DNA from: an uncultured Acidimicrobiia bacterium
GTDB taxonomy: Bacteria; Acidobacteriota; Terriglobia; Versatilivoradales; Versatilivoraceae
Direction: 5' to 3'
Length of the DNA: 64,000 bases
Assembly: GCA_963786955.1 (NCBI GenBank)
Contig: CAWBAT010000004.1
Location: 768,001 to 832,000 of the forward strand
The position numbers and the translations under genes are program-made. The notes below the pieces were generated by a model, which did not search any database, was not told the DNA's origin, and saw only the letters and a program-made list of their open reading frames with translations. Of the stretch, positions 22,701 through 58,536 are shown piece by piece (position 1 is the first letter of the stretch; the number at the start of each line of letters is the position of its first letter).

Positions 22701-23343
22701 AAACGGGGTGATCCGGAGTGAGTGCCCGGGCACGATGGGCATGAACCCATTCATCATCAATCATCGCGCGAATATCCTCGAGGGCCAGCTCTTCAATCTT
22801 CATCACCTCATGAGAAGAACGGAACCCATCAAAAAAATGCAGAAACGGAACTCGCGCTTGCAGCGTGGCCGATTGGGCAATGAGCGCAAAGTCCATGACC
22901 TCTTGGACGGAGTTTGAGGCCAACATGGCAAATCCGGTGGCACGGGCTGCCATCACGTCACTATGATCTCCGAAAATGGAGAGCGCATGCGTGGCTACGG
23001 TTCGGGCTGCAATATGGAAAACGGCGGGAGTCAATTCTCCGGCAATCTTGTACATATTCGGGATCATGAGCAGGAGTCCCTGAGAAGCGGTAAACGTCGT
23101 CGCGAGAGCTCCGGTCTGCAATGCTCCGTGGATCGCTCCGGCGGCGCCCCCTTCACTCTGCATTTCTTGCACGATGGGAACTGTCCCCCACAAGTTCTTC
23201 CTGCCTTCGGCAGCCCAGGCATCCGACAATTCTCCCATCGGTGAGGAGGGGGTGATCGGGTAGATGGCGATCACTTCGTTTGTCAAGTAAGCCACATAGG
23301 CAGCGGCTTCGTTTCCATCTATGGTAACCAAACAGCGATTCAT
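19766..23343 (-). CDS. nifJ: pyruvate:ferredoxin (flavodoxin) oxidoreductase, two apparent frameshifts
   Basis: [59 protein letters not shown]. Confidence 0.96.
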
Positions 23344-38779: not shown

Positions 38780-38803
38780 AGCACCGAAATAAGGACATCC
38801 ATT

Positions 38804-39043
38804 ATGCTTTTACCTCAGATCCCGGAAGGAGCAGCTCTTCGGATCTTGGGATTCACCGGGACACGCCGTTTGCGCCGGGACTTGGCGCAATTAGGAATCC
38901 AGATCGGGGACATTGTTCGTGTTCACCGTCATGTCCCGTTTGGCGGGCCGATCCTCCTGGAGCACTGCGGCACAAAGGTTGCATTGGGGAGGAGCCTGGC
39001 AGAACGAATCCGGGTAGAACAGGTGAATGGGGAATCGCCTTAA
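38804..39043 (+). CDS. feoA: ferrous iron transport protein A
   Basis: LAQLGIQIGD..PFGGPI..VALGRSLA. Confidence 0.85.
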   Translation: MLLPQIPEGAALRILGFTGTRRLRRDLAQLGIQIGDIVRVHRHVPFGGPILLEHCGTKVALGRSLAERIRVEQVNGESP

Positions 39044-40938
39044 TAGGACAACCTAATTCCGGGAAAAGCACCCTTTTCAACAGTGTTGCAGGCTATCGTT
39101 CAGTCACCTCTAATTTCCCCGGCGTCACCGTTCATTACACGAGTGGCCGGATCCGCTTCAATGGTCTGCTTTCCCAGCTCATCGACTTACCAGGCATCTA
39201 CTCGCTGACGGCGTCAAATCCAGCCGAAAGCGCCACCTGTGATTTTCTGCTGCAACAATCTCCGAATGCCCTCATCAATGTCATCGACAGCTCTGTTCTC
39301 TCGCGCAGTCTGGAGCTTACGTTGCAACTACTCGAGTTTGGGTATCCGATGGTTGTCTGCTTAAATATGATGGATGAAGCTCATCGGAAAGGCATCCGTA
39401 TTGATCCGCACAAACTCTCCGAGAAACTCGGGGTGCCGGTGATTGAAACGATTGCCGCCGAGGGCATCGGTATCCACCGCCTCTTCCAGGAAACCTTTCA
39501 GGTGATCGGCCGGAAACCAGCAGCAGGGACGGGAGTTGGGTTTGATCGGGACACCGAGACGATTATTGATGAACTGGTGCACCAGATTGTAAAGTTTCCA
39601 GACGTACACAGACGGTTACCACCCCGTCTTTTGGCCATCCGTCTGTTAGAAGACAATCCTCAACTGGCGGAGCAAAGCCTGACACTGCCAAAAGAACAGA
39701 TCGAGGCCGCCCGCCTCCAATTGGAAGCCAATCGCGGCAAACCAGCGGAAGAAGTGATTGAATCAGAGCGCCATGCCCTTTCCATGAAGCTTTTCGAGGA
39801 GGTAGCCAGCGTAAGCACTCCTCCACGGGACGTGCGCGAAAGCCTCGATGCCATTCTTACCCACAAAGTTTGGGGATATCTGATTCTAATCGGGATGCTG
39901 GTTTCTTTTTTTGGGATGGTCTACGGAGTCGGAATGCTCCTGGAGCGTCCAGTCCTGGGGGTGTTTGAGTGGGTGATCGCAGCTGCCGGCCGATGGATGA
40001 ATCCATCCGGATTACCGTTTGCGTTATCCAAAGGTCTCGTCCAAGGCGTTGCAGGCGGGGTCGCCATTGTTCTTCCCTACTTGCTCCCTTTCCTGATTGG
40101 CATGGCTGTCCTGGAGGATATTGGGTATTTGCCGCGAGTTGCTTTTCTCATGGACTCCTTCATGCACCGCATCGGGCTCCATGGGGTTGCTGTCATCCCA
40201 GCCATTCTCGGCTATGGCTGCAACGTTCCTGCGGTGATGGCCACGCGAATCCTCTCTTCCCCTCGAGACCGCTTCATTGCGGCTTTTATCTCTACCTTGA
40301 CGCCCTGTTCTGCGAGAATGACCGTCATCTTCGGATTGGTTGCTTTCTACCTCGGTCCTTTATGGGCCTTATTGATTTACGTCATTAATTTTGTAGTGAT
40401 CGCGCTTTCAGGAAGAATTCTCACTGCAATAATGCCGGAAAGCTCTCCCGGATTGATCCTTGAAGTCCCCCCTTACCGTACCCCGAAATTCTCTACTTTG
40501 ATGGGAAAGACCTGGTTGCGCATGAAGGAATTCGTCGTCGTTGCCTGGCCGTTGTTGATCGCGGGGAGTTTTTTGCTCAGTCTTGCTGAGTACTATCACT
40601 GGGACAAGGTGCTCAATGCCGGGCTGTCTCCGTTAACATCACTGCTTGGCTTGCCTGCGGCGGTTGGAACAACCCTGATCTTCGGGATTCTTCGGAAAGA
40701 ACTTTCAATGATCATGCTCCTGCAGGCGTTGGGGACAACCGATGTTCAATCGGTCCTATCCGTAGGACAGATTTTTGTGTTTACGATTTTTATTACCTTC
40801 TATATTCCCTGCGTAGCCACCATCGCTGCCCTCATCAAAGAAATTGGCTGGAGGATGGCCTTGGCAGTTGCTGTCTATAGCCTGTCCTCGGCCGTGCTGA
40901 TTGGGCTGGGTGGACGGCTCCTTTTCGCCGCGCTTTGA
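39026..40938 (+). CDS. feoB: ferrous iron transport protein B (exact start unclear)
   Basis: GQPNSGKST, NFPGVT, DLPGIYSL, LNMMD, GYGCNVPA, PCSAR. Confidence 0.95.
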
Positions 40939-41167: not shown

Positions 41168-41281
41168 CTCTGTCGTGTCCTTTGTCTGAAAGAGGTTCCC
41201 CTCCGGCAAATATCCTTATACCAAAGCGGGTTTTTGGTTATGATTTCACGACTTAATTAAACCTAAGAGGGGGAAATCTTG

Positions 41282-42662
41282 ATGAAAATAAACCGACGAA
41301 ATTTTATTGCTTCTTCGGCGGCAGGAGTAGTTGGCGTTTCCACCACAGCAAAGAGTTTTGCCAACATTATGGGGGCCAATGATCGCATCTTGATGGGCTT
41401 TATCGGTCTGGGGGGAATGGGCCAGTACAATCTGAAGGATTTTCTCCAAATGAAGGACGTATCCGTGGCCGCAGTGTGTGATGTATGGGAACATAATCTG
41501 AGTGTGGCTTCGAAATTGACCGAAACCCAACCGTCCGGCAAAGCCAAGGGATATTCAGATTTTCGCAAGCTACTAGAAATGAAAGAGATCGATGCTGTCT
41601 TGATTGCGACTCCCGACCATTGGCATGCTTTTCCAACAATTCAGGCTTGCGAGGCAGGCAAAGATGTCTATATCGAAAAACCATTGGCCTACTGTATTCA
41701 GGAGGGCCGCAAGATGGTGGAGGCTGCTCGAAAGAATAACCGTGTGGTCCAGATGGGCACCCAGCAACGATCCGGTAAACATTACGCCGAAGCCTCTCAA
41801 CTGATCCGGGAGGGAAGATCGGCAATATTAGTCGGGTTGCCGCCTGGAATTACGGCAATGAGTCTCCTCTCGGCATCGGTAATCCTCCCGATGGAGACTC
41901 CTCCCGCCGGATTAAACTGGGACATGTATCTGGGAGCCGCACCCGTCGTCCCCTTTAATCCCAATCGCTTCATAGTGAATTTCCGTTGGTTTTGGGATTA
42001 TGCAGGCGGAATGATGACCGATTGGGGGGTCCACCATATTGACACCGTCCATATGGCCATGGGGGTAAAAGCTCCAAATTGCCGTGTGCACTTTCGGGCG
42101 GAAGTTCGTTCTGAGAGATAATCGCCAAACTCCCGACACTTTGGAAGTGACCTACGAATATCCCGAATTTATTCTGACTTATTCCAGCCGCTTTCTGAAC
42201 AATCGCAGCGCCCAAGGAAGGATCTACGGAATCGAATTCTTTGGAACGGACGGGACACTCTTCATTGACCGAGCCGGCTATGAGATCTACCCTGAGACAC
42301 GGAAAATTGACGAGGAGCCTGTCCCGCCTTATCTGAAAAAACTCAAGAACGACGAAAACCCCCCGAAGCCTTGGGAAAAGGAACGATCCGAACGTCTAGA
42401 ACGCACTCAGCTCGTTCAGGGCGAAGGGTCTGAACAACACATCTATCATGTGCGTAACTTTCTGGATTGCGTGAAGAGCCGGCAGCGTCCGGTCTCCGAC
42501 GTGGAAGAGGGGCACCGCTCGACGACGGCAGCCCATCTTGGGAATATCTCCTTACACGCCGGCAGAAAAATTCGTTGGGATGCCGAGAAGGAAGTAGTCA
42601 TCAACGATCCCGAGGCCAACAAGCTGCTCACTCGTGAATATCGAAAACCGTGGGAAGTCTAG
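41282..42662 (+). CDS. Tat-exported Gfo/Idh/MocA oxidoreductase (frameshifts)
   Basis: RRNFI signal, [38 protein letters not shown]. Confidence 0.9.
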
Positions 42663-43728: not shown

Positions 43729-45109
43729 TTATTCAAGATTGTGTTTCTTGACCTTGTAGCGCAACGTGTCGCGACTGATTTTCAGTAATTTCGCGGCTTT
43801 GGTCTTGTTGCTGTTGGCATACTGAAGAGCCTGTTGGATCAATTCTTTTTCGATAGCCTCCAATCCGGCACCTTCCGAAGGGAGCTTGATCAATGGTCTC
43901 CAGATACCCTGGATAAGGTCGTGGCTACGCTCGGATCCAGGATTCGGATGGGCAGTTCCGACACATCGATTGTTTCATGATCACCAGAATCATGGCCCGT
44001 TCGATGGCATTCTTGAGTTCGCGTACGTTACCTGGCCAGGAGTAGTTCATCAGCAATTTCATGCCCTCGGGTGTAATCCCTTGCACGTCTTTGCGGAACT
44101 GAATGTTATAACGCTGAATAAAATGTTCAATTAGGGCGGGAATATCCTCCTTGCGTTCTCGCAATGGGGGAATGACGATCGGGATGACGGATAGCCGGTA
44201 ATAAAGATCTTCCCGAAATTTGCCTTCGCTAACAACCGTTTCCAAATTGCAATTGGTTGAGGCCACAACCTGAACATTTACCGAGATATCCTTGACCCCT
44301 CCTACCCGTCGAAAGGTCTGATCTTCCAGAACCCGAAGAAACTTCGACTGCATGTTGATATGCATTTCGCTGATTTCGTCCAGGAAAACGGTCCCACCGT
44401 CAGCCATTTCAAAGACCCCCTTCTTCATGGTCTTGGCATCGGTAAAGGCTCCTTTCTCATAGCCAAAGAGTTCCGTCTCAATCAAGGTCTCTGGGATGGC
44501 GGCACAATTGAGCGCAAAAAATGGATTGTCCCGACGGGAACTCTCGTAGTGGAGCGCTCGGCTGACCAGGTCTTTTCCGGTTCCGCTTTCTCCCTGGACC
44601 AGCAACGTCGTTGTCCCAGACTGAGCGAGTCGCTTGATTAACACCAGCACATCGCGAATCGGCTTTGAGCGGCCAACAATATTCTCCAGACTAAAGCGAA
44701 TCTTGTTGGTCTTAAATGTCTGGGCTACCTGGGTTTTAAGGCGGAAAGTTTCTAGAGCGTTGCGAACAATGTTTTCAAGTTTTTCGAAATTGATGGGTTT
44801 CTCAATGAAATCATAGGCACCCAGCTTTAGGGCTTGAACCGCGACATCCACAACCCCAAAAGCCGTAATCATGATCACCGGCAGGACGGGATGGTTCTCT
44901 TTGATCTCTTTCAGCAACTCAATTCCGCTGCCATCCGGCAGCTTTATGTCGAGAGTCACGAGATCCGGTGTTTCCTGGCTAATCTTTCGCATGGCCTCCT
45001 GGATATCTTCGGCTTCCGAAACTTGGTAGCCCCAGGATCCTAGCTTTTGCTTCATCGACCATCGAATCAGCTTTTCGTCATCAACTATCAGTATGTTTTC
45101 GCGTGGCAT
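43729..45109 (-). CDS. NtrC-family sigma54-dependent response regulator (C-terminal frameshift)
   Basis: Receiver domain, GESGTGKD, GAFTDA, FLDEI, WPGNVREL; HTH in a shifted frame ending at TAA 43729. Confidence 0.93.
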
Positions 45110-45268
45110 AGTTCTCTTGCAGCCTTCTCCATCAACGAATTCGTCATCGATTCAATATTGGGTAACCTAGCCATTGCCGGGTTCTTCAGGAACTCAGCAA
45201 CCACCCCAGTTCACTCGAATATAGCCCAATGCAATTGTGGGAAGATAGCAATTTATTAAGCGAGGAGG

Positions 45269-46765
45269 TCAGCGGGACAGTGAGGGATGAAACACAGGGA
45301 TTAAAGGAAGCTCGATGATGAAACGGGCCCCCTTGTCGGGTTCGCTCTCTACCATGATTTGCCCGCCATGATTGAGAACAATTCGTTTGCAGGTTGCTAG
45401 TCCAAGACCCGTTCCGTGCTTCTTGGTGGTAAAAAAAGGGTGAAAGATTTTGCTTAGCTTGTCTTTGGGAATTCCGGGGCCATCATCTGCCACCTCTACT
45501 TGGATTTTGGAGTCGCCGAGACTCTTCACCTTTACGGTTACGATCCCGTTTGTTTCAATCGCTTCGATGCTATTTAAGATCAAATTCATGAAAAGCTGTT
45601 TTAGCTCGTTCTCATCGCCAATTAAAAATGGGATGCTTCCCAGGTGTTTCAGGCGCAGCGAGATCTTCTTTGAGTCTGCCAGCTTCTTCAGGAACGAGAG
45701 AATCTCTTTGAACAGCTCTACGAGATCGGTCCTCACGAAATCCGGGTTCCCGGGTTTCGAGAACGACAACAAGTTCATCACGCTGCGATCAATTCGCCTC
45801 ACTTCAGAGAGGACTTCGACCAGGATCGCACGGTGAGGATGATATTCCGGCAAGCTGTCGCAAATGATCTCGATCGCGCCCTTAATTCCCGCTAATGGAT
45901 TCTTAATTTCATGAGCCAATCCAGCCGTCAACTCCCCGATTGCAGAAAGCTTTTCCATCTGGGATAAATGCCGGTCCATCAGTTTCTGTTCAGTCACATC
46001 TTTAAGCACAGAGGAGAATCCGATCAGCTTCCCTTCGGGGTCTTTGATCGCCGTGCGAGTGAAGATGACATCAATGAGTTGTCGATCCTTGGTCAATCGT
46101 TGAGTTTGGTAACTGCGTAAGAAGCCTTCGTTGCGAGAGATCTTGGAGATTTGTTCGAGTTCTTTTCTTTCACTGAGATGTGGAGGCAGCAGGATATCCA
46201 AGGATTGTCCCAGCATTTCTTCCTCGGAATAGCCAAAGATCGCTTCTGCGCCTTTGTTCCAGGTGGTAATTCGCTCTCGTGCGATCGAGTGTGAAGATGG
46301 CATCTACCGAATTTCGCAGGATGCTCGCAAAAAACTGCTCTTTCTCCCGAATGACTGTCTCGAGTTCCCGGATCCGGCTCAAATCATGGCAAAGGATAAC
46401 CATCCCTTCCCGTGTCCATGGTCGGAAGGAACAACCGAAACCGAGAGTTTGACCGGAATTTCTCTACTCTCTTTTCCTCGAAGAAGCGTTTCGAAATGAT
46501 ATACCCCCTGGCGATCCTTCAAGGCAGTTGAGATCCTCTGCATCTCCTCTTCTCCTTCCGGTAGAAGCTCTCGAAAGGGTTTCCCAAGGATTTCCGCAAC
46601 CGAATAGCCCAGAAGTTCTTGTGCCCTTGGGATTGAGGGAATTTAGCAACCCTTCCGCGTCGAGGGAGAAGATGGCCTCGTCGACGACACACGACCCGGC
46701 AGTTCTCCTGGCAGATATCTTCTGAACTCGGGAAAGGAGAGTTCAATGGAGATGTCAACTTCCAT
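45269..46765 (-). CDS. PAS-domain sensor histidine kinase (multiple frameshifts in the N-terminal part)
   Basis: NSVDAIFTLD..WNKGAE, AHEIKNPL, NSIEA, GTGLGL; probable start MEVDIS at 46765. Confidence 0.85.
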
Positions 46766-47214: not shown

Positions 47215-47736
47215 CTATTTGAGGGCTTCACGGCAAGAAGGGCAAAAGAGATTGGATTTTAGGTCAATCTGTTCTACCGAATTCGACGGGTGCATGACGC
47301 AGTCATAGGTGGAACAGTGATGTAGACCAAAAGTATGGCCCAATTCATGGATGGCTTCTTTTTCGCATCGGGCGTATAACAGATCGCGGTCTTCCGGCAA
47401 GCCGTAAAACCGCTGTCTCAACCGGCAAATGGAGATGAGAGCAGAACGGTTGCTCAGTTGAGCTTCTCCAAACACGAAGGTGAGAATGGGAATAAACAGA
47501 TCGACATCGCAAACACCCAAAAGCTTTGCCGAATCGCCATTGGTACAGTTCCGGATTTCTCCTAACAGGAGGGTAGAATAATATTGCTGTCGACCTGTAT
47601 GATAAGCAATGGCTGGGGCAATGACCTTCTTTTCCAGGCTGCATGGCATTTTCAACGTATCCGCTAAAGCCACCTGAAGCCAGGAGAGTATCTCAGAATC
47701 GACATCCCCGATACGAACGAGACGGATTTCTTGCAT
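47215..47736 (-). CDS. archaemetzincin-family Zn metalloprotease
   Basis: RQQY, DVDLFIPILTFVFG, KEAIHELGHTFGLHHC..CVM..S..CPSC. Confidence 0.92.
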   Translation of the reverse strand: MQEIRLVRIGDVDSEILSWLQVALADTLKMPCSLEKKVIAPAIAYHTGRQQYYSTLLLGEIRNCTNGDSAKLLGVCDVDLFIPILTFVFGEAQLSNRSALISICRLRQRFYGLPEDRDLLYARCEKEAIHELGHTFGLHHCSTYDCVMHPSNSVEQIDLKSNLFCPSCREALK

Positions 47737-47774
47737 GGACTAATTCGCGGATCCTGCGCAACGATGAGCAGAAG

Positions 47775-49226
47775 TCAGTGCGGAAGACTGGCCCCCTCCT
47801 TTCGTTCTATATTCTCGGGTGATTGACCCTCCTCGCTCACTGGACCGGTTTCCCATCGATCGGCTCCTTTTGAGGCGGCCTCTCTTTTCAGTTCGTATCT
47901 CTTGATCTTGTTGTAGAGAGTCACCCGGTCAATCTCTAGCAGCCGGGCTGCTTGTGAAATATTCCAACCCGTTTCGGTCAATACACGTTGAATATGTTGG
48001 GCCTCGATCGCGGAAATTGAACGATTTCCAGGCAACTGAGGAGACCCATGAGTTTGCAGGGGAAGATCGGCTGGTTCGATCTCGCGCCCTCTGCAGACAA
48101 GGACAGCACGTTCTATGGCGTTCTGTAACTCTCTCACGTTTCCGGGCCAATCATACGCCATGAGCAATCCCATGGCATTGGGGGAAGCGCAAATTACCTG
48201 TTTGTTCATCGACACACTGTGTTTCCGAATAAAATGATCCGCTAAGAGCGGAATGTCTTCCCGACGCTCGCGAAGCGGCGGGATCGTGATTGAAAAGACA
48301 TTCAGCCGATAGTACAGATCCTCCCGAAATGTGCCTTTGGCCACCAGGTTCTCCAGATTCCGATTGGTCGCGGCAACCAGCCGGAAATCAACCGAGAGGG
48401 CCTCATTTCCGCCTACCCGGGTAATCTTCTTTTCCTCAATGACCCGCAAAAGATCAATCTGTGTCTTCAGACTGATATCCCCGATTTCATCGAGGAAAAG
48501 GGTCCCCCCATCAGCCATTTCAAACTTTCCTTTTCTCCGGTATTGGGCTCCCGTAAAGGACCCCTTTTCATGACCAAAAAGCTCGCTTTCGAGAATCCCC
48601 TCCGAAAGCGCGCCACAATTAACAACCAGGATGGGCATATATCGCCTGGGGCTATTCGCGTGGATCGCCCTGGCCACCAATTCCTTGCCTGTTCCACTTT
48701 CTCCCCGGATGAGGATCGTCGTGTCGGTGGCTGAAACCAGCATTACCTGCTCCAAGACACGTCGCATGGCGCCACTCCGTCCAACAATTTCGTGAAAACG
48801 GGACAATTCATCAATCTTTTCTCGCAATCGCAAGTTTTCAGAAAAGAGCACTCGTCGTTCTGCGGCATTCCTAACCAAGTGTTCCAGGTCATCCGGGTCG
48901 ATCGGTTTGACGACGTAGTCATAAGCACCTTGTTTCATGGCCTCCACCGCCGTTTCCACAGAGGCGTAAGCGGTCATCAGAATGATCGTGGAGTTCGGAT
49001 CAACCTTTCGTATCCTTTTTTGCAGCTCCAGCCCATCCATTCCCGGCATTTTAATATCCAGCAAATAGATATCCCATTGCTGTTGGGTGAGCTTTTCAAG
49101 AGCTTCCTTTCCTGATCCGGCCACATCAACTTGATAACCCTCTTCCTCAAACCAGCTCTTAAGAGAATCTCGCACACTCGCTTCGTCATCTGCGATTAAG
49201 ATCCGGATATTACTATTTTTTACCAT
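47775..49226 (-). CDS. NtrC-family sigma54-dependent response regulator
   Basis: Receiver (LLDIKMPG), GESGTGKE, GSFTGA, WPGNVREL, HTH. Confidence 0.95.
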   Translation of the reverse strand: MVKNSNIRILIADDEASVRDSLKSWFEEEGYQVDVAGSGKEALEKLTQQQWDIYLLDIKMPGMDGLELQKRIRKVDPNSTIILMTAYASVETAVEAMKQGAYDYVVKPIDPDDLEHLVRNAAERRVLFSENLRLREKIDELSRFHEIVGRSGAMRRVLEQVMLVSATDTTILIRGESGTGKELVARAIHANSPRRYMPILVVNCGALSEGILESELFGHEKGSFTGAQYRRKGKFEMADGGTLFLDEIGDISLKTQIDLLRVIEEKKITRVGGNEALSVDFRLVAATNRNLENLVAKGTFREDLYYRLNVFSITIPPLRERREDIPLLADHFIRKHSVSMNKQVICASPNAMGLLMAYDWPGNVRELQNAIERAVLVCRGREIEPADLPLQTHGSPQLPGNRSISAIEAQHIQRVLTETGWNISQAARLLEIDRVTLYNKIKRYELKREAASKGADRWETGPVSEEGQSPENIERKEGASLPH

Positions 49227-49237
49227 GATGCACCTCG

Positions 49238-50893
49238 TTAGGCTTCCACTCCATGGGGTAATAACTCAGTATTCTTCTCGTGCTCGGCGTCCTGCTCATC
49301 CTTTGTTCTTAAGGGCAATCGTATGAGGAAGGCGGTCCCTTTGCCCGGACTGGACTGGACTTCAATGGTCCCGCTGTGCTGTTGAACAATGCCGTAAACC
49401 ACAGCCAAACCTAAGCCAACACCTTTTCCTTGTTCCTTGGTGGTAAAGAACGGTTCAAAAATATGTTTCTGGGTCTCTTCGTTCATTCCGATCCCATTGT
49501 CTTGGATGGTTACTTCCACAACTGACTTTTCCACGCATTGTTGGGTGCGAATTTCGAGGATACCTTCTCCTGCCGGCATGGCTTCACAGGCATTAATGAT
49601 GAGTGCAACCAGAGCCTGCCGAATCAGCTGTGCATCACAGAAGACCTGAGGAAGAGCCTCATCCAAACGTAACAAGGTCTGGAGGTTCATCAGGTCAATC
49701 TTGTGCTGAACGAGTCGCAGAGATTGTCGAATCAATTCATTCAAAGGATTCGGCTGGAGATTGACCGTGGTCTGCCGAGCAAATTGGAGGAGGTTCTTGA
49801 CAATTTCACCGCAGCGAGCCGATTCGCTGGCAATGACTTCGAGGTATTGAGTGGCGGTTTCAGCTTTTGGGAGAGTTCCCTTCTCATTTCTTATCTGTTT
49901 AAGCAGAAGCTTGGCATAGGTCAGAATCCCACTCAAAGGATTGTTGATTTCATGCGCAACGATGGCCGCCAACTTGCCAATGGAAGACATTCGTTCCGCA
50001 TAAACAATTTGCTTTTGTGCACTCTGGAGTTCTTCCGTCTTCTCGCGAATCCGGTTCTCTAGCGTTTTGTTCCATTCATCGAGCTGGCCTTTGGCACGCC
50101 GCAATTCCAGAACCATCTGATTAAATGAAGCCGCCAGCTGGCCAATTTCGTCCCGCGACGAGACCGGGATCAGTTCATCCAGATTCCCTGAGGCGACACG
50201 TTTTGTTCCCAGCGTGAGTTGCTTGACGGGCCGATAAACCATCAGCCAGATCGGTGCCCCGATCAACAATGGGATCGCAATGATCGCGAAGATAAAACTG
50301 ACCACGACACTCTGGGTTCCATCGGCGATGGCCTCGTCAACCTTGGCCATCGACATGGTCACATCTAATACGCCGAGCACTTGTTTATCGGGGGGATGAG
50401 CATGACAGTCGGAGTTGGTGCAACTCGGCTCATTCTCTATCGGGTTAATCAGCCCTAGATTCCGTTTTCCGCCCGATGCATTGTATATCCGCATCCGGTC
50501 GGGCCTTTTCAGACGGCGGAGAGGCTCCCCTTGAAAATGACAGGCCGTACAGGCTTCCGCCTGCTTGTCCACGAAGGTGCCCACCTCATTAGGATCGGTG
50601 GAATAACTGATTCTTCCATTCTCGTTATAAATGCGGATCTTGCCGATGCCGGGCTCCCCCCCGATCGTGCTAATAATGTGATAGACTTCATCGCGATGGT
50701 TCTGGAGCATGGAGTAGCGAGTACTTCGCTTAATGGTGTCGCTGATACGGTCGGCACTGACAAATACAGACTCCTCAAGATGCTGCCGGTGCAAACGAAC
50801 AACCTGCCTCCCCAACAAGACAAAGATCAAAAGCAAAACAACTACCAAGCAAATCGTGAGTCTAAGGCTGAGATTGAATGAACGGGTTGACAT
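49238..50893 (-). CDS. HAMP sensor histidine kinase with periplasmic heme c-binding motifs
   Basis: Two TM helices flank CTACH and CTNSDCH; HAMP domain; AHEINNPL; GVGLGL. Confidence 0.93.
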
Positions 50894-50930
50894 CCCGGTC
50901 TCTATCCTTCAAGCCAATGGCTTCTTTTAT

Positions 50931-52535
50931 CTATTCGCTTTGATGACAAAGTTGGCAGTCCTCTTTGGTGCTGAAAGACTTTTTCCCATCATGGCAGCTC
51001 CCACATTGGTCTTCCCGATGCATATCGATCTTCTTATCCAGACGAGAAGACTTCAGGCTCGATTTCAGGATTGCAAAGCGTTGAGTGTGGCAGAAACTGC
51101 AATCCGGCCGTTTCATGTCGATGTGTGAAGCATGACGAAAAGTGACTATTCCCAGGCTCCCCTCACCCTGCGGAAAAACGATGTCGTCGGGCAGTCTGAG
51201 TTGCTTCAACCCTTCGTCGGGACTGGGTGCTGCTTCCTTCCCGGAAGCGGACACGATTGCCGGGTTAGTTCGCAATAATATTCCGCTGACAGCCAACGAC
51301 ATGCTACCGAACAGGAAAACCCCTCCAAGGGCTAGAACCAACGTTGTGCTGCTCAATAGGGGCTGCTGTAACACAACGGGCGCTAAAAACTCAGGGGACA
51401 CTTCCTCTGATCCTTTTGAACTCTCCTCTGGAAAAACGGGCAATGTTTTTATGGCGATTCTGAACAGAAGGAAACCAAGTGCCACGATACTTAAGGTCAC
51501 GGATAGTTCAGTCCAGCTGGGAAAGTACTGCCGACCCAAAGCGCCTTCCATTCCCGAGATACTGATGTTCAATCGATTCATGACAAATCCCAGGATCACC
51601 AGCACAGAAGAAACAAAAAGGCTAAAATGGTTGTGCCTTATCCGCGGGATGGCGAGCAGGACAATGGGAGCGAGTATTCCCAACACGATTTCCGCCAGGA
51701 ACATTCGAGCTTCATAGGTCGGCTCAAAAATCTCGCTCAATACACCCCTTCCTCCCAAGTCCTGAAGCTTAAGAACGAAATAGACACTCAAAGCCACGAC
51801 AATGACTTTGGCCAAGTCAGCAAGAAGATCTATCTCCAGGCGCTTCCGGAATGCGCGGTAGCTCAGGAAGGACTCGAGAATCGTCATGGCACAACCCAGC
51901 GCGATCGCTGAGATGAAGAAAAATACCGGAAGAAACGATGAATACCAGAATGGATGGAGCTTGTGAGGCACAATCAAGTAGAGCGATCCCAGCGACGACT
52001 GGTGGAGCGTGGACAAGATCACACCCAATATGACCAAGGGAATCATCACTGACTTCACGATCTTAAACGGGAGTTCCCATTTCAAGTGCTGCAATAGCAT
52101 GGGACTAAATTCGAGGGCCAGCACCGTCGTGTAGAGGGTAACGCACCACCCCACTTCGAACATCACGGAACGGGGATTCCACATCACCAGTGGGTGCCAG
52201 ATACGGTAAGGCCTACCTAGATCAAAAAGCAGCGCAATGATGACCAACAAATATCCAAGGAAGGCCGTCAAGATGGTGGGACGTACGATCGGTTTGAACC
52301 GTCGGATGTTGAAAATGTAAACACAGGCGCTGATCGTGAATCCGCCCGCCGCCAGTGCCACTCCACAGAGAATGTCGAATCCAATCCACAACCCCCACGG
52401 AAAGCTGTCACTGAGAGCCGTACTGGCTCCCAAGCCTTGAGTAAAGCGAATATAGGCGCTGTAAAGCCCGCAGGCAAAAATGAAAGAGACCAGTACCCGC
52501 CAAAATGTCAGCTTAGGAAATGACGTCCTCTCCAT
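50931..52535 (-). CDS. NrfD/HybB-family membrane subunit fused to a C-terminal triheme c7-like cytochrome
   Basis: Start MERTSF after GGAGGA; PWGLW, DLGRP.R, SVMFEV, STLHQSSLG; tail VTFRHASH..CSFCH..CGSCH..CQLCH. Confidence 0.9.
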   Translation of the reverse strand: MERTSFPKLTFWRVLVSFIFACGLYSAYIRFTQGLGASTALSDSFPWGLWIGFDILCGVALAAGGFTISACVYIFNIRRFKPIVRPTILTAFLGYLLVIIALLFDLGRPYRIWHPLVMWNPRSVMFEVGWCVTLYTTVLALEFSPMLLQHLKWELPFKIVKSVMIPLVILGVILSTLHQSSLGSLYLIVPHKLHPFWYSSFLPVFFFISAIALGCAMTILESFLSYRAFRKRLEIDLLADLAKVIVVALSVYFVLKLQDLGGRGVLSEIFEPTYEARMFLAEIVLGILAPIVLLAIPRIRHNHFSLFVSSVLVILGFVMNRLNISISGMEGALGRQYFPSWTELSVTLSIVALGFLLFRIAIKTLPVFPEESSKGSEEVSPEFLAPVVLQQPLLSSTTLVLALGGVFLFGSMSLAVSGILLRTNPAIVSASGKEAAPSPDEGLKQLRLPDDIVFPQGEGSLGIVTFRHASHIDMKRPDCSFCHTQRFAILKSSLKSSRLDKKIDMHREDQCGSCHDGKKSFSTKEDCQLCHQSE

Positions 52536-52627
52536 AATTCCTCCACAATGTAAGAGGGATAAGTCTTCGTGCTCATCAGAACCCGGCCAGTTCAAGCAAG
52601 AATTGCCGCCCCTGGCTGTAAGCGCGT

Positions 52628-53383
52628 TTACTCGGACCCGGAGCTTTTGGCAACCTTTTCGCGCCGGGCTGTTATCCACCAGATTCCGCCTAGAAGCACA
52701 TTCCCCAACAAGACGAAGTTGGGTATCTTCTGCAAAACGTGCCAAGTTAGCAGAGGCAACGGCTCCTTCTCAATTTGAGTGGGATAGCCTAACTCCCCCA
52801 AAGGGACATCCGAGATCAATAGAACCGAGGTTCCCCCCACTTCCTCAAGACCATAGATATGGTTTATGTACTTTCCTGACGGAGTGGATAATCGCCGGCG
52901 CGCTTCTTCAATCAATTCTTCCCGATTCCCAAATAGGGTGGCCTGCGTGGGGCAGGCTTCCGCGCAAGCCGTGGGAAGCCCTTGAGCCAGTCGGTCAGAG
53001 CAGAGGTCACATTTTCGCACTCTGGGAAGAACTTTATTCCATTCGTATTTCGGGATGTCAAAAGGACAAGCCACCATGCAATAGCGGCAGCCTATACATC
53101 GATCTTCATAGTAGACTACGGGTCCTGCCTCGGTCTTCCGCAGGGCGGCTACCGGGCAGACGGAGGCACAAGTCGGGGTCTCGCAATGCATGCACAGACG
53201 TCGGACGAATCGACCGTGGGTCTGTTTGACGACGGTATAAGTCTCCGCCGAAAGATTATCTTTCAGGAAATCGATGCTGGATGAAGGCAGGCTGTTTCTT
53301 TCTTTACAGGCTATGTAGCAAGCTCCGCAGCCGACACAGCGCGTGCTATCGAAGAGGATTCCTTTCTTCGTCGAATTGTCCAT
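52628..53383 (-). CDS. HybA/FdnH-like 4x[4Fe-4S] protein with a C-terminal TM anchor
   Basis: CVGCGAC..C, CMHC..PTC..CP, CIGCRYC..CP, KCDLC..C..CP, EVGGT; start MDNSTKK after AAGGA; no Tat signal. Confidence 0.9.
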   Translation of the reverse strand: MDNSTKKGILFDSTRCVGCGACYIACKERNSLPSSSIDFLKDNLSAETYTVVKQTHGRFVRRLCMHCETPTCASVCPVAALRKTEAGPVVYYEDRCIGCRYCMVACPFDIPKYEWNKVLPRVRKCDLCSDRLAQGLPTACAEACPTQATLFGNREELIEEARRRLSTPSGKYINHIYGLEEVGGTSVLLISDVPLGELGYPTQIEKEPLPLLTWHVLQKIPNFVLLGNVLLGGIWWITARREKVAKSSGSE

Positions 53384-53432
53384 AGGGGCGTCCTTTGACG
53401 ATCGACACACCCCCTCCCGTCTGTTGAATAAT

Positions 53433-53447
53433 GCAACTTCCCTTCCA
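53433..53447 (-). promoter_or_regulatory. putative sigma54 promoter for the hybA-like gene
   Basis: Minus strand TGGAAGGGAAGTTGC followed by A. Confidence 0.55.
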
Positions 53448-53634
53448 AAGCACGTTTTGTTGAAAATCAAATCAGTTCTTTTGGAAATGGCTGACGGGCC
53501 TTAGCTTGTCTTGCTTCTCGACCCTTGAAAGCAGTCCTTCGATGACAATTCCTAGAAGGAAAGTGGGGCAAAAAGCCAAACAGCTATTGGGGTTTCGAGA
53601 GATTTGGCCGAGTCAGCGTGAGGATACCGGGGCC

Positions 53635-54348
53635 TCACGCTGTTCTCATTTTGGATTGGTCATTGTGTAAGAATTCTCTGGTGAATTTATTCCAGGTGTC
53701 ATTGTCCATCAATTCCAATACTCCACTGGTGATTTCTCCTCCATCCTGGAGGACGATTCCCAGAGCGGTATTTTCAACCGGCCTCGACAGAATGAAGTCT
53801 TGAAGCCGTCTTGCTTCGGTCTTAAGCCAGGCTAACGCTTCCTCTGCAATCAACATTTGTCTAAGATTGCTCGCAAGATTGCGGGGACGCAAGGAACAGA
53901 GCCAGCCTTCACGATATGGATCCCTTGGGACCCTGCCGAGATCTTTGGAAAGCGCTTCATTGACCATTTCTACGACTCCATCGATGGGTGCTTTGAAAGT
54001 GGCTTCCCGTTCCCCTTGGCGGAGGGTGAAAAGATCATCACCGCGCCGGAATTCCTGCCCGACCCGAGGCAGTAGGAGCTTGTCTATTGTGCCCATGGCG
54101 TACTGAGCAAATGCATCGATCCCCACATTGGCAGTTCCGTCCAGATTAAGACTAAGCCAGGTATGACCGCGATCCGTATAGATGCCTCCTGGGAGAGACT
54201 TAACCGTATCAGGAAAGTTCCAAGGACTTCTTTGAGCTGGCTTGGGTCCAGAAGCCGCCTCTAGGCGTTTGAATTCTGATTTCTGTACGAGGGCGTCCAC
54301 CAGAATAAATGCTACGATCGTGAAAATAACAAATATGGCAACCATCAC
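53635..54348 (-). CDS. membrane-anchored GcvH-fold protein lacking the lipoyl-Lys
   Basis: N-terminal TM; GHTW..VGIDAFA..LPRVG..APIDG..VNE..DPY..GW; DGG in the C-terminal tail. Confidence 0.85.
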   Translation of the reverse strand: MMVAIFVIFTIVAFILVDALVQKSEFKRLEAASGPKPAQRSPWNFPDTVKSLPGGIYTDRGHTWLSLNLDGTANVGIDAFAQYAMGTIDKLLLPRVGQEFRRGDDLFTLRQGEREATFKAPIDGVVEMVNEALSKDLGRVPRDPYREGWLCSLRPRNLASNLRQMLIAEEALAWLKTEARRLQDFILSRPVENTALGIVLQDGGEITSGVLELMDNDTWNKFTREFLHNDQSKMRTA

Positions 54349-55142
54349 AATCCTCCTTTCAGAAACAACGCAATCATCTTCCGTTGTTGATCGGGACTTA
54401 AAAAAGCAATGAAATTTTCGAAGGGCCTTCCGCCGTCAGGCAGTGTTGTTCCTAGATCGGCACTGGACTGGTCTATCAATTTGGCTAGCTCATGATTTAA
54501 GCGGCAATATTCATTTGCAGACCAGGCTTTGGCCTGTTCACCATAATGAAATTCTTTGAGGCTACTCTCCAAATTGTCTGGTCGCATGTACAAAGCCCAT
54601 CCTTCCCCATAAGGGTCTTGATTCATGAGGGAGGGAGACACCATGAGCTTTTCATTTCTCTTCTCAATGGTCCCTTTTATCGGGATAGGAACTTCCGTTT
54701 CGCCGGCCCCGTGGGCGATTCTCCAACAGGCATTCCCATTGGAAACCTGGGTTTCTGCAACGGGTAGCCCCACACTGTAAATCCTTCCAACCAAGCGTTG
54801 GGCAAAGTCATCCAGACCGATCCTCACTTTCCCTTCTTCCTCAACTCGCGCCCATACATGCGCTGGGTGCAAAAAAACATCCCCGATGTATTCCTGGCTG
54901 CCAAGCGGTACGGTATGCCTCGTTCCGTCGTGTCCTGGGCGGTGTCGGTGAGAGTCGGTTTCCCCAGCCGTGCACTGATTTTCTTTTGTCTCAAGCCATG
55001 CCTGGTAAAATGCACAATGTTCACAGTCATAATCACGATCGCAGAGCTTGAAATTGACCGTGCCAGACATCATCCAGATACATTTGAGAAGTCGAATTTC
55101 AGCTTGTTGACCCTGTCCTTCCTTTTTCCAATAATCGATCAT
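54345..55142 (-). CDS. GcvH-fold protein with an N-terminal Cys4 motif, lacking the lipoyl-Lys
   Basis: CIWM..G..KLCDRDYDCEHC; HVW..IGLDDFAQ..P.KG..NE..DPYGEGW; start MIDYW after AAGGAGG. Confidence 0.85.
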   Translation of the reverse strand: MIDYWKKEGQGQQAEIRLLKCIWMMSGTVNFKLCDRDYDCEHCAFYQAWLETKENQCTAGETDSHRHRPGHDGTRHTVPLGSQEYIGDVFLHPAHVWARVEEEGKVRIGLDDFAQRLVGRIYSVGLPVAETQVSNGNACWRIAHGAGETEVPIPIKGTIEKRNEKLMVSPSLMNQDPYGEGWALYMRPDNLESSLKEFHYGEQAKAWSANEYCRLNHELAKLIDQSSADLGTTLPDGGRPFENFIAFLSPDQQRKMIALFLKGGL

Positions 55143-55182
55143 GGTCACCCTCCTTCTCCAACAGATCTCAACCTCTACTAGG

Positions 55183-55197
55183 GCAAATGAAGTGCCA
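55183..55197 (-). promoter_or_regulatory. sigma54 promoter (near consensus)
   Basis: Minus strand TGGCACTTCATTTGC. Confidence 0.8.
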
Positions 55198-55651
55198 TGT
55201 TTAAAGGCCCAGAAAAGTTCTTTCAAGAAGGTGTATCTAGTTGAATAAAAATGAGTTAGTAAATAGCTAATCCGAAGGTCTAAACGGGCTGCTGTTTATT
55301 TATTCAACGCCTCAAGTGGAGAGACTCCTCACAACTTGCCTTATCCAATGAAGAACTCAACACTTAGATCGGTGTATAATCTCTCAACACCGGGTGTTGA
55401 ATGAGACAACAGCGGATTCTATTTTCTGAAGCTGGAAGAGTTTAATCTGAAGCAGGGGATACTTTGTCAAATCACCCGCATGGTGGCAGCCTGTTCCCAA
55501 AGAAGATCTAAAGCCGAGGACGTTCCCCGGAGTAATTTCTTTATTTTGTGTAGGTTTGTTAATTAATTGAATTGACCGAAAGCGGTCATTAAATTGCCTT
55601 CGCCTATTCGTGAGCTAGAATTTGATTTGCCGGAGGAGTCACTCAACAGCT

Positions 55652-57144
55652 ATGAGCTCTGTTACGAATTGGATCCCGATGAAGTGGCCCTGTGGTCCCT
55701 TAGAGGTTGCACTCCGCCAGAGACAAGGAGCACTTAGCGAGGAATTGCGGCAGTCTCTTCAATTGTGGCTACAGCCGTCTTCACTAGCAATTGTTGAGAA
55801 GACTCCGGTCAATTGCCTTGTCATTCGTTGGGCTGCAGGGCTGCCTCAAGATGAGGAACAACAAAAAAGCCTCAAGCCACTGCTGGAAAAAGGGAAGGAG
55901 TTAGGGCTTTCTTTCGCTGGCGTGATCGAAGGAGCCGCCGATAAGCAAGCTGCTCTCAAAACTGCTGCCGATGCTGGTCTTTCAGCCATCATCTCGTCGG
56001 ATCCAAGTAAGCTTTCAGGCAAGCTCCCGATTATTGAATCGTATCAGCGTTCAACCTTGTCCAGCAAAATGACGAGCCCGTTGCTTGCCTGTGGCGACGC
56101 GCTTTGGCCGCGTCTGCGTTCTAGCGTCGCTGCCGACACAGACGCCGTCGTTGCCGGACCAACGGGAGTTCCTTGGGTGGATTCGAATGGATGGTACGTG
56201 CAGCTGGCCAGAACGCTAAGCCACGAAAAGCCTATCTGGTTGATGTTTGATCCTCCAAAAGCAACTTCCGTCCTTCATGGGGAATCCTATTTACTGGCGT
56301 TGGCCGACACGGAAGCTTACGGAGCTCGCTGGGCTGTTTCCCTGGATGACCAATTCAGGAGCGAGCTGGCGAGTCATAGTCCTTCAGCTCTCAAGAAATG
56401 GAAAGGCATCGCAGATGCTTTGTCTTTCTTCCAGAAACGACAAGAATGGAACTCCTTTCGCCCGAAAAGTGTTCTGGCTGTTGTTTCCGATTTTTCAGGT
56501 GCCAATGAATTCCTCAGTGGCGAAGTGTTAAATCTTCTGCGTCGAAGGCAGGTGGCCTTCAGCATTGTCGAGAAATCATCATGGACCGAAACTTCGCAGG
56601 GAGATGTTAAAGCTGTTTTATGGGTAGATCGGGAACCCGTGGGTAAAGACCACATGGCGGAGTTGCTGGGCTTTGCGGAAAAAGGGGGTTTGTTGATCGT
56701 TCCCAAGACGTGGGGGAAAATTCCGGGGACAGCCCAGGGGACCGAGCTAGATGATCGCTTTGAGATCTACAGCAAGGGAAGGGACGTGTGGCTGTGGCCA
56801 GGACAGAGACTGAAGACCCCTATGCGATGGCGGAGGAGGCTCACTTACTATTGAGCCGGCGGAACGATTTGTTTAGACTTTGGAATGCAGGATCTTTCAA
56901 CGGTTACTTAACCGCTTCCGCGGACAGGAAGAAAACTTTATTGCAATTGATTAATTATGCAGGACGAGATGCAGTAGATCTTTTGTCGGTATGGGTGAGG
57001 GGCAACTATTCGCAGACTAAGGTTTGGAGACATTGCAGTGATAATCCGGCGGCCCTGAACTCTGTGCCCATGCAGAATGGCCAGGAATATCATCTGCCTC
57101 CCATTGGTTATTATGTCGCGATTGAAATGGAGAACATGCTCTAG
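55652..57144 (+). CDS. hypothetical protein (frameshift near 56780)
   Basis: Long ORF pair with GPTGVPWVDSNGW and a GATase-like C-terminal stretch; function not recognised. Confidence 0.7.
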
Positions 57145-57339: not shown

Positions 57340-58536
57340 ATGCGAACGGAACTCAATCGAAGGGAATGGCTGACGACAGCCGGAAAATCCCTTGCCGGTA
57401 TCTATCTCGGCCGTACCCTGACGAGCTATGCATCAACGGCACCGACCGCTCCAGTGTCTGTCGCCAAATGTCCCAATTACGGGGATATCCTGGTTCCCAC
57501 TCTGGAAAAGATGTTCGATCAATTAGGGGGACTCGATAGACTCGTCAAGGGTAAAACGGTTGCCATCAAGCTGAACCTCACAGGGAATCCCAACCATCGG
57601 CTCGCTCACCTCCCTTTAGGACAGGCGCAATGGGTGCATCCCAAGATAGTCGGCGCAACGGTCTATCTTCTGGGTCAGGCAGGGGCTCGGCGGATCCGGT
57701 TGTTGGAGAGCCCCATGTCCACCAGTGAGCCTCTCGAAGAATTCATGCTCGCGGCCAATTGGGAGCCGCGCGAGTTCCTGAGTGCCGCTCCTCGGGTAGA
57801 ATTTGAAAACACGAATTATCTGGGGACAGCCAAGAAGTACACACGATTTCAGGTGCCGCGTGGAGGACTGCTCTTTTCAGCCTACGATTTGAATCATTCC
57901 TACGAAGATTGTGATGTTTTCGTGTCTATCGCGAAGCTAAAGGAACATCTGACGGCAGGCATCACGCTTTCCATGAAGAATTGCTTTGGCATCACCCCTT
58001 GCACGATTTATGGGGAAGCCGCCGGAGAGGACGAACCCAGTCTCACTCCCAAGGGCGGGCGAAGGCTATTCCATGACGGATTCCGGCAACCTTCAAAGTG
58101 CTCGCCTCCGGAAAAAGATCCTTCTGGTTCCCGTGAGGGAGGGTATCGCGTCCCCCGGGCAGTCGTCGATTTGGTGGCAGCACGGCCAATCCACCTGGCC
58201 ATTATTGACGGAATTGACACCATGACATCCGGAGAAGGTCCCTGGGCGCCGAATACCCGCCCCGTTAAACCCGGAGTGCTGATTGCCGGAACAAACTGCG
58301 TCACCACGGACGCCGTCGGTACGGCCATCATGGGATATGATCCCATGGCGGATCGGGGAATCTCTCCATTTGAAACTTGTGACAGCACTCTTCGCCTGGC
58401 AGAAGACATGGGCCTGGGAATTCGGGATCTCAACCGCATTGAGGTTCGGGGTGTCCCCATCCCACAGGCCAGATTCGACTTCAAGCCTTATCACAACTCT
58501 CCTTGGAATGTCGAAGATCTCGACTTCCGATGCTGA
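57340..58536 (+). CDS. Tat-exported DUF362 protein
   Basis: RREWL signal; VAIKLNL, AKLKEH..AGITLSMKN.FG, IIDG. Confidence 0.85.
   Translation: MRTELNRREWLTTAGKSLAGIYLGRTLTSYASTAPTAPVSVAKCPNYGDILVPTLEKMFDQLGGLDRLVKGKTVAIKLNLTGNPNHRLAHLPLGQAQWVHPKIVGATVYLLGQAGARRIRLLESPMSTSEPLEEFMLAANWEPREFLSAAPRVEFENTNYLGTAKKYTRFQVPRGGLLFSAYDLNHSYEDCDVFVSIAKLKEHLTAGITLSMKNCFGITPCTIYGEAAGEDEPSLTPKGGRRLFHDGFRQPSKCSPPEKDPSGSREGGYRVPRAVVDLVAARPIHLAIIDGIDTMTSGEGPWAPNTRPVKPGVLIAGTNCVTTDAVGTAIMGYDPMADRGISPFETCDSTLRLAEDMGLGIRDLNRIEVRGVPIPQARFDFKPYHNSPWNVEDLDFRC

Follow-up and report, generated by a model that had tools for sequence, protein, structure and literature searches.

What is encoded by a set of seven genes that joins a quinone-linked membrane module to a haem-motif kinase and to relatives of the glycine-cleavage H protein, and that contains no catalytic subunit? 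The question is raised by a stretch of 64,000 nucleotides from an uncultured bacterium of the Acidobacteriota (assembly GCA_963786955.1, contig CAWBAT010000004.1, positions 768,001 to 832,000), referred to here as the window. Between window positions 47215 and 55197 lie seven intact, co-oriented genes on the minus strand, which we call G1 to G7: two proteins of the H-protein fold (G1 and G2), a four-cluster iron–sulfur (Fe-S) protein (G3), an NrfD-type membrane subunit carrying a triheme c7 domain (G4), a sensor histidine kinase (G5), an NtrC-family activator of sigma-54-dependent transcription (G6) and an archaemetzincin (G7). The membrane pair, G3 and G4, is of a known kind; what is new is that it has a fixed set of partners, namely lipoate-free H-fold proteins, a kinase with haem motifs and an archaemetzincin. 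The cassette is real, conserved and apparently undescribed, as an initial annotation made from the sequence had proposed, and no description of it was found in the full-text literature (supplements not covered). In our judgement the case is evenly balanced that the window holds one c7-bearing copy of a widespread sigma-54-dependent cassette, in which the quinone-linked module is under the control of the cassette's own haem-sensing kinase. From the overall interpretation offered by the initial annotation, the co-occurrence of the genes without a catalytic subunit and the lipoyl-less nature of the H folds are retained; corrections concern the generality of the c7 fusion, the idea that the lack of a partner is unusual, and the Fe-S protein, whose missing Tat signal leaves room for an unlinked export partner.

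A cassette that recurs across phyla

An important first step is to establish that the seven genes belong together. A scan with the NrfD part of G4, using one genome per species, returned at least 591 relatives, and the best 80 loci were kept for synteny counts by tblastn with the window's proteins; these loci being the closest relatives by NrfD, the counts apply to a single orthologous group. The gene for the Fe-S protein is found directly upstream of the NrfD gene in 79 of 79 loci, and an H-fold gene lies no more than 2.5 kb upstream on the same strand in 66 of 75. Where the locus leaves room for the downstream genes (67 loci), the kinase is present in 63, NtrC in 63, the protease in 58 and all three together in 58, with the kinase gene directly after the NrfD gene in 54. 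A single H-fold gene is present in 55 of the 80 loci, two in 14, three in 4 and none in 7. The distance matrices of G2, G3, G4 and G5 correlate (r 0.79-0.90, 49 loci), which fits co-inheritance, and shared descent gives the same pattern.

The distribution is wide. Besides the Acidobacteriota, the record titles of the 80 loci name at least ten groups at the phylum level, and a profile of the tethered H-fold protein (the G2 type) matches 1,482 cluster representatives at E 1e-30. Within the window's own phylum, about 41 of 301 sampled genomes carry a full-length tethered H-fold gene by hand count; this tally and that of [NiFe] hydrogenases given below each include one unpublished genome (G152, G024), neither of which is decisive alone.

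The initial annotation had named gene-neighbourhood analysis as a check on its reading, to be abandoned if the genes failed to co-occur or were usually accompanied by a catalytic subunit. Instead, the genes co-occur widely, and the neighbourhoods that were scanned lack such a subunit. Of the 52 window open reading frames (ORFs) of at least 150 amino acids, the 43 that were scanned gave no match to a hydrogenase, molybdopterin, gcvT or gcvP family, the nine outside the scan being cut or overlapping in antisense. Likewise, no hydrogenase or molybdoenzyme family was found in 55 ORFs around the cassette at six other loci (from Ignavibacteriae, Bacteroidetes, Calditrichales, Blastocatellia, an uncultured member of the Acidobacteriota and an unclassified uncultured bacterium), nor in 3 ORFs of a Myxococcales locus, L014. 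At the six loci, the genes flanking the core cassette are unrelated from one locus to the next.

The H fold as a candidate signalling part

The strongest clue to the role of the H-fold proteins comes from relatives in which the H fold is joined to a receiver (REC) domain. For example, at locus L078 the place of G2 is taken by a gene whose product has the same anchor at its N terminus, followed by a receiver and the H fold (Pfam REC and GCV_H). The gene is flanked on one side by a homologous kinase with haem motifs and on the other by the Fe-S/NrfD pair; neither NtrC nor the protease is present at this locus. Both domains are found in all 120 relatives of this transmembrane (TM)-REC-H-fold type among the matches listed. 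Geothrix spp. and Mesoterricola silvestris are among the sources named, and for these only the fusion gene was seen. Both are cultured. Twelve full-length fusion loci, made up of 11 further loci and L078's own contig (refetched as L094), include Holophagaceae, Mesoterricola, Eisenbacteria, two Bacteroidota, Ignavibacteriales, Thermoanaerobaculia, Caldithrix and a Xanthomonadales metagenome-assembled genome. The Fe-S/NrfD pair is present in 12 of these 12 loci and the homologous kinase in 11, and the protease in none. Because an anchored H-fold protein with a receiver adjoins a homologous kinase and an Fe-S/NrfD pair, the H fold looks, from gene and domain order, like a two-component signalling part tied to the kinase and module of the cassette. 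The adaptor role suggested in the initial annotation thus gains support, and the fusions point to control of the module by the kinase at least as much as to the reverse.

The proteins themselves have the H-protein fold yet are distinct from its lipoylated members. G1 and G2 match Pfam GCV_H at E 2.7e-22 and 6.6e-19, respectively, and the two H-fold proteins reach 78 and 69 bits with the NCBIfam GcvH equivalog, for which the cut-off is 117. When aligned with the genome's own canonical GcvH, 17 H-fold relatives have no conserved lysine in the lipoylation column, and the pair in the window is indeed lipoyl-less, as first annotated. A structure model of G1 has a confident H-protein core, with a pLDDT (predicted local distance difference test) value above 90, and it matches the Thermus H-protein 1onl_A in Foldseek with a template-modelling (TM) score of 0.90 and a root-mean-square deviation of 1.5 Å, which identifies the fold as that of an H-protein. 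This fold is common to G1, G2, the glycine cleavage H protein and the LbpA proteins of sHdr systems. In contrast to GcvH and LbpA, however, G1 and G2 lack the lipoyl lysine, have gained a TM anchor or a Cys4 motif plus a C-terminal DGG extension, and are not encoded beside gcvT/gcvP or hdr genes. The canonical gcvH lies on another contig of the genome, where the ORF directly after it was read by eye as gcvP.

The added segments are conserved as well. The N-terminal motif of G1, C-x13-C-x6-C-x2-C, has three invariant cysteines and a near-invariant fourth in 54 aligned sequences, and is found in 49 of the 54 rows when the spacing is slightly relaxed. A C-terminal extension with a near-invariant DGG is common to both types of H-fold protein. 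Pfam gave no family, even at E 10, for the Cys4 region of G1 or for either C-terminal extension; a search of the ESM Atlas with the Cys4 region gave no usable match, and a profile search of solved structures with G1 relatives returned H-proteins only. By analogy with ubiquitin-like carriers, DGG was considered as a cleavage site for the protease, a proposal that was set aside for want of supporting evidence; the REC-fusion relatives have no DGG segment. The first element of G2 is a TM helix with basic residues behind it, an arrangement that puts the H domain, by prediction, in the cytoplasm and that recurs in nearly all 67 upstream H-fold ORFs. In one relative, P0233, a long N-terminal part with a hydrophobic start precedes the same TM helix; read as exported, this part would fit the topology predicted for G2.

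Lysine-less H folds also occur in other fusions among the relatives: the partner is a 2Fe-2S/4Fe-4S module in some and an FAD oxidase with CCG domains in others. In P0078 and P0079 the Cys4 motif follows a 2Fe-2S/4Fe-4S ferredoxin-like module. Another such protein, P0093 (1391 aa), has three tandem lysine-less H-fold domains together with an FAD-linked oxidase, a 4Fe-4S dicluster and two CCG domains. A further distinct H-fold fusion is represented by a genome family in the phylum sample (f33), in which H-fold domains lie within ORFs of about 376-489 aa and only the profile core is matched.

A quinone-linked module of the NrfD family

G3 has 16 invariant cysteines, sufficient for four [4Fe-4S] clusters, and its best NCBIfam models are HmcB (253.6 bits, cut-off 420) and HybA (217.3 bits, cut-off 263), both below the cut-off. 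G4 matches NrfD in Pfam (E 1e-28), and its best NCBIfam models, HmcC (350.9 bits, cut-off 550) and HybB (310 bits, cut-off 450), are again below. By hydrophobicity and the positive-inside rule, G4 is predicted to have 10 TM helices with both ends inside, and an eleventh helix that puts the c7 domain outside. The predicted topology matches that given for 10-helix NrfD subunits in the available part of a review of the family (PMC8076601). G4 is 34% identical to E. coli HybB, and its D105, S123 and R321, invariant in 46 sequences, align with HybB D109, S129 and R329, which the same source describes as the quinone-site acid, the conserved serine and the mid-membrane arginine (PMC8076601). The fold and all three of these residues mark G4 as a member of the NrfD family. 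Its strongest conservation lies in the outer, periplasmic (P-side) loops.

The c7 domain at the C terminus of G4 is an addition to this core. A Cytochrome_C7 domain with three CxxCH motifs occupies residues 479-531 of 534 aa and scores 56.3 bits with TIGR04257 (cut-off 40), the attachment of haem being predicted from the motifs. The annotated NrfD-c7 fusion is therefore present in the window, but it turns out to be a minority trait: the domain occurs in 11 of 77 loci, and in a quick maximum-likelihood tree the c7-fused forms make up one supported clade of 13 that includes the window. Because the clade is single and supported, the fusion is taken to be derived and not the rule. Only 14 of the 80 loci encode another nearby protein with at least two CxxCH motifs.

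How does this module compare with known ones? HybA and HybB of E. coli hydrogenase 2 have in common with G3 and G4 the four-cluster cysteine pattern, the C-terminal TM anchor and the 10-TM NrfD core; here, by contrast, G3 has no twin-arginine translocation (Tat) signal, neither hybO nor hybC lies beside it, and G4 has an extra TM helix and the c7 domain. The H-fold proteins, kinase, NtrC and protease are not known to be part of the Hmc or Nhc complexes of Desulfovibrio. In those complexes, the Fe-S and NrfD pair (HmcB/HmcC, NhcB/NhcC) works with a periplasmic c-type cytochrome and not with a catalytic enzyme, according to the available part of the review (PMC8076601). Unlike Hmc and Nhc, the present cassette encodes no 16- or 9-haem cytochrome and no HmcE or HmcF; the HmcA model reaches only 16 bits, and a Pfam/NCBIfam scan of the cassette found no cytochrome b or CCG protein, which sets it apart from Hmc.

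Some NrfD complexes, SoeABC among them, face the cytoplasm, and Nhc, Qrc, ACIII and the Geobacter Cbc complexes use cytochromes as partners. The missing catalytic partner, which the initial annotation had stressed, is thus confirmed at the cassette and in the relatives' loci, but it is not unusual in itself: Nhc, Qrc and ACIII, listed among complexes with NrfD subunits in Table 1 of the review (PMC8076601), are similar in this respect. SoeABC is listed there as well, and in the available part of the review's text histidine kinases are unmentioned and there is no match for GcvH (PMC8076601). Within the genome, only two NrfD genes are found, namely G4 and an ACIII gene.

The location of G3 requires separate comment. 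Its C-terminal TM anchor, its basic tail and the conserved outer loops of G4 argue for a periplasmic position. G3 is 33% identical to E. coli HybA, which starts with a twin-arginine signal (NRRNFIK), and the alignment begins at HybA residue 39 and G3 residue 8, past the signal. The nearest solved chain to G3 is FdnH (1kqf_B). FdnH itself carries no signal and is exported together with FdnG, on which it hitch-hikes. As G3 too is without a Tat signal, an unlinked export partner is possible. One candidate, a DUF362 protein (57340-58536) whose N-terminus reads Tat-like, was rejected; its gene lies 2 kb upstream of the cassette in divergent orientation, has weak homologues in only 2 of the 80 loci and is not part of the cassette.

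Kinase, activator, promoters and protease

The kinase G5 has a HAMP-HisKA-HATPase arrangement, with a CxxCH and a Cx4CH motif between its two predicted TM segments. Among 65 homologues, 45 have CxxCH and Cx4CH, 13 have Cx4CH only, 5 have two CxxCH motifs and 2 are otherwise. The second site, C-x4-C-H-x-H, is near-invariant and becomes CxxCH in a few sequences, which is what a haem-attachment site would be expected to show. A model of the sensor region gives a PDC-type domain flanked by two TM helices (pLDDT 88), for which Foldseek finds WalK, KinD, CitA, DctB and the Geobacter proteins GSU0935 (3b42) and GSU0582 (3b47). The sensor domains of the last two bind haem c. Their match to G5 has E values of 8e-5 and 8e-3, respectively, with low TM-scores (0.27-0.47), and the periplasmic PDC/PAS-like fold is common to all three. 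GSU0935 and GSU0582 are chemotaxis proteins by their PDB titles, whereas G5 is a histidine kinase whose homologues usually have two motifs, one of them Cx4CH.

G6 combines a receiver (Pfam E 1e-34), a Sigma54_activat domain (E 1e-69) and HTH_8 (E 1.6e-14), and its translation shows the GSFTGA loop, as befits an NtrC-family enhancer-binding protein. Care must be taken with the promoters of the cassette, as the sigma-54 motif alone occurs at chance level in the window (31 matches with at most 2 mismatches, 29.4 expected). Position is more informative: upstream of the first H-fold gene, a stringent -24/-12 pattern is found in 23 of 63 loci where about 4 would be expected, usually 45-85 nt before the start in the relatives, and in 12 of 63 loci the pattern occurs in the gap between G2 and G3. 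Of the two sigma-54-type promoters in the initial annotation, the site before G1 is near-consensus and has a position that recurs in relatives, but the site before G3, with its 2 mismatches, is weak. A scan of the cassette for sigma-70 promoters and terminators gave results at chance level only.

Upstream of the G1 promoter lies a perfect palindrome that is the sole exact copy in the 5.65 Mb genome. A near-identical palindrome is found upstream in the Ignavibacteriae locus L054, and 6 of 63 upstream regions contain GTTGA-N5-TCAAC, while 1 more has it with wider spacing (about 0.4 expected). We read the palindrome as a putative binding site through which the cassette's own NtrC may exert autoregulation.

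G7 scores 168 bits with the NCBIfam archaemetzincin subfamily (cut-off 145), which places it in peptidase family M54. AmzA and AMZ-tk have in common with G7 the motif HExxHxxGxxH and the Cys4 zinc site, which form the archaemetzincin consensus (PMC3427221). A fixed partnership with a kinase, NtrC and a quinone module, as found here, is not mentioned in the available parts of the papers on these two proteins, and a 2012 structure paper states in its abstract that very little is known of the biological role of archaemetzincins. The full motif is present in 52 of 61 homologues of G7. Among the other nine (L009, L027-L029, L033, L034, L039, L070 and L075), where the motif reads HExxHxxXxxH, the eight sequences read keep the histidines and the glutamate and alter only the glycine, and the ninth (L028) was not read. 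Seven of these loci (L027-L029, L033, L034, L039 and L075) also have no first CxxCH in the kinase; the two changes travel together.

Working model and alternatives

In the reading that we prefer, the haem or haems of the kinase would let it sense either a ligand or the redox state of the periplasm, and it would phosphorylate NtrC, which would then fire the sigma-54 promoter or promoters of the cassette itself. The Fe-S/NrfD module would shuttle electrons between the menaquinone pool and periplasmic haems. In the window this haem would be the module's own c7, and in most relatives the haem of the kinase would be the sole one encoded nearby. The H-fold proteins would serve as signalling or regulatory subunits at the cytoplasmic face, not as lipoyl carriers. 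In the receiver-fusion relatives phosphorylation would act on the module directly, because there the tethered H-fold protein itself carries the receiver, and the protease would belong to the NtrC-type version of the cassette.

Several points weigh against this model. The loci are one orthologous group by selection and related genomes are not independent, and in 4 of the 67 loci with room the membrane trio occurs without kinase, NtrC and protease. A physical link of the H-fold proteins to the module or the kinase is putative, haem attachment is predicted from motifs alone, and the second promoter (53432..53447) is the weak one. A Tat signal on the Fe-S protein is absent from 79 of 79 homologues, each read upstream in frame to the previous stop, and the cassette has no conserved partner with a Tat signal that would explain how G3 reaches the periplasm.

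The model can also be carried further. The lipoate-free H fold may be an unrecognised output or adaptor domain of two-component systems, coupling the haem-sensing kinase to the quinone-linked Fe-S/NrfD module, with all seven genes forming one machine that senses and responds to redox state and with the archaemetzincin as a turnover or processing factor. We regard this extension as tentative and, as it stands, doubtful. If true, a regulated and partner-less member would be added to the NrfD family of energy-converting modules, and the glycine-cleavage H fold would gain a second life as a signalling domain. For archaemetzincins, the cassette offers a first fixed genomic context. If it is present in Geothrix spp. 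or Mesoterricola silvestris, it would also be open to genetics.

Alternatively, the flow of information could be reversed, with the Fe-S/NrfD module acting as a co-sensor that sets the redox state of the kinase haem from the quinone pool, and with sigma-54 transcription of the cassette and of other operons as the output. The kinase is the only haem-motif protein found near the module in 66 of the 80 loci, its gene directly follows that of NrfD in 54 of the 67 loci with room, and the quinone-site residues are conserved, all of which favours such an arrangement. However, the loci in which the trio occurs without the kinase set speak against it, and electrons would have another way out through the cytochromes added in the c7 clade and in some loci. 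The single genomic copy of the palindrome hints at a regulon of one operon, and the REC-H-fold fusions suggest a signal from the kinase to the module. We therefore consider a quinone-pool sensor unlikely, although it survives better than the other alternatives.

An ordinary respiratory complex would be a simpler answer. Here the cassette would encode a quinol:cytochrome c complex, or a quinone reductase, of the Nhc, Hmc or Cbc type that is induced by the neighbouring two-component system, and the H-fold proteins would be passive structural subunits. The best NCBIfam matches (HmcB, HmcC, HybA and HybB), the c7 outlet of the window copy and the presence in the genome of multihaem-cytochrome/cytochrome-b genes read as CbcL-like are all in keeping with this, as are the NrfD complexes without a hydrogenase or molybdoenzyme subunit in Table 1 of the review (PMC8076601). 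Yet most relatives encode no cytochrome partner, the Hmc and Hyb scores are all under the family cut-offs, and in many phyla the module is accompanied by the kinase, NtrC and the protease. The receiver domain acquired by the H-fold protein in relatives is also unfit for a passive subunit, and this explanation is to our minds quite unlikely.

A third proposal accounts for the export of G3: the module could be the membrane anchor of a Tat-exported catalytic enzyme encoded elsewhere, for instance a periplasmic hydrogenase, which would carry G3 across the membrane. G3 appears to be periplasmic although it has no Tat signal, the solved chain closest to it is the hitch-hiking FdnH, and a [NiFe] hydrogenase is encoded about 24 kb from the cassette, outside the window. 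The local hydrogenase has its own cytochrome b, however, and no such partner is linked in the six loci scanned. Among the approximately 41 cassette genomes, about 23 have a strong match to the [NiFe] large subunit, 7 have a weak partial match and 11 have none at E 1e-10, three of the 11 being rated 100% complete. These 11 genomes weaken the case for a hydrogenase as obligatory partner, and the anchor proposal is improbable. Least probable by far is a membrane-anchored redox module of the cytoplasm, in which a cytoplasm-facing G3 would pass electrons to the Cys4 H-fold protein: the missing signal peptide of G3, the Cys4 motif behind a ferredoxin-like module in P0078 and P0079 and the existence of cytoplasm-facing NrfD complexes such as SoeABC would fit it, but the basic tail of G3, its HybA/HmcB-homologous anchor, the topology of G4 (N-in/C-in, c7 outside) and its P-side loop conservation place G3 outside, and most loci do without the Cys4 H-fold gene, 55 of 80 having only one gene for an H-fold protein.

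Features of the window and neighbouring genes

The features of the cassette are collected in Table 1. Domain calls come from Pfam and NCBIfam searches of the window's proteins, which bore out the seven co-oriented genes of the initial annotation and each of their domains.

Table 1. Genes and predicted regulatory elements of the cassette, in window coordinates
Feature	Position	Strand	Source or remark
G1: soluble H-protein-fold protein, N-terminal Cys4 motif, C-terminal DGG extension, without lipoyl lysine	54345..55142	-	Pfam GCV_H
G2: H-protein-fold protein, N-terminal TM anchor, H domain predicted cytoplasmic, without lipoyl lysine	53635..54348	-	Pfam GCV_H
G3: HybA/HmcB-like 4x[4Fe-4S] protein, C-terminal TM anchor, basic tail, without Tat signal	52628..53383	-	
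G4: HybB/HmcC-like NrfD subunit (10 TM), eleventh TM, periplasmic triheme c7 domain	50931..52535	-	
G5: sensor histidine kinase, periplasmic PDC-type domain with CxxCH and Cx4CH	49238..50893	-	
G6: NtrC-family sigma-54 activator (REC, AAA+, HTH_8)	47775..49226	-	Pfam
G7: archaemetzincin (peptidase M54), intact HExxHxxGxxH and Cys4 site	47215..47736	-	NCBIfam
Sigma-54 -24/-12 promoter TGGCAC-N5-TTGC before G1	55182..55197	-	1 mismatch to 16-mer, 40 nt before ATG
Weaker sigma-54-like site before G3	53432..53447	-	2 mismatches, 49 nt before G3 ATG
Candidate enhancer (upstream activating sequence), 7-3-7 palindrome TCAACAC-CCG-GTGTTGA	55384..55400	-	about 190 bp upstream of sigma-54 promoter

The likely start of G1 is the ATG at 55142, behind GGAGG, rather than the mechanical TTG at 55226, and that of G2 is the ATG at 54345, which overlaps the stop of G1. 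Expression of the cassette can be glimpsed in contigs of a near relative that come from two RNA libraries of sediment and have mostly 90-99% identity to the window; they overlap six of the cassette's genes and reach parts of G7, G6, G5, the 3' end of G4, G2 and G1. One RNA contig bridges the junction of G4 and G5, although a single transcript is not thereby proven. The contigs are weak evidence of expression, because carry-over of DNA is possible, and they are too patchy for an operon transcript.

Just downstream of the cassette (43925-46403) is a second two-component pair, made up of a PAS kinase and a 394-aa sigma-54 activator; the activator has no HTH_8 match, and the N-terminal part of the kinase seemingly continues in another frame (46170-46403). 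On the other side, a divergent ORF of 410 aa (55622-56854) matches no Pfam family even at E 10. The genes read as CbcL-like, which encode a multihaem cytochrome c (c7/c3/paired CxxCH) together with a cytochrome b561 domain, occur twice, at 36570-38779 in the window and, outside it, at 6059-8866 in L087. The window copy consists of two overlapping ORFs beside feoB (38776-40938), and the L087 copy is one ORF of 935 aa. They hint at a metal-reducing or extracellular electron-transfer lifestyle. A neighbouring stretch of the genome, L088 (G000:C4:852001-872000), holds a nitrous-oxide reductase cluster (nos propeller, NosD, NosL and ATP-binding cassette parts) and a second, short NiFe-hydrogenase-like gene, both 30-40 kb from the cassette.

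A number of genes are broken up over neighbouring ORFs. Those affected encode pyruvate:ferredoxin oxidoreductase, which is in three pieces, malic enzyme, an amine oxidase and a GFO/IDH/MocA oxidoreductase, along with HypF outside the window. The splits lie at 19766-23343, 25280-27016, 33090-34560 and 41279-42662 in the window and at 10687-12818 in L087. They look like the product of a frameshift-prone assembly, in which the seven genes of the cassette are intact.

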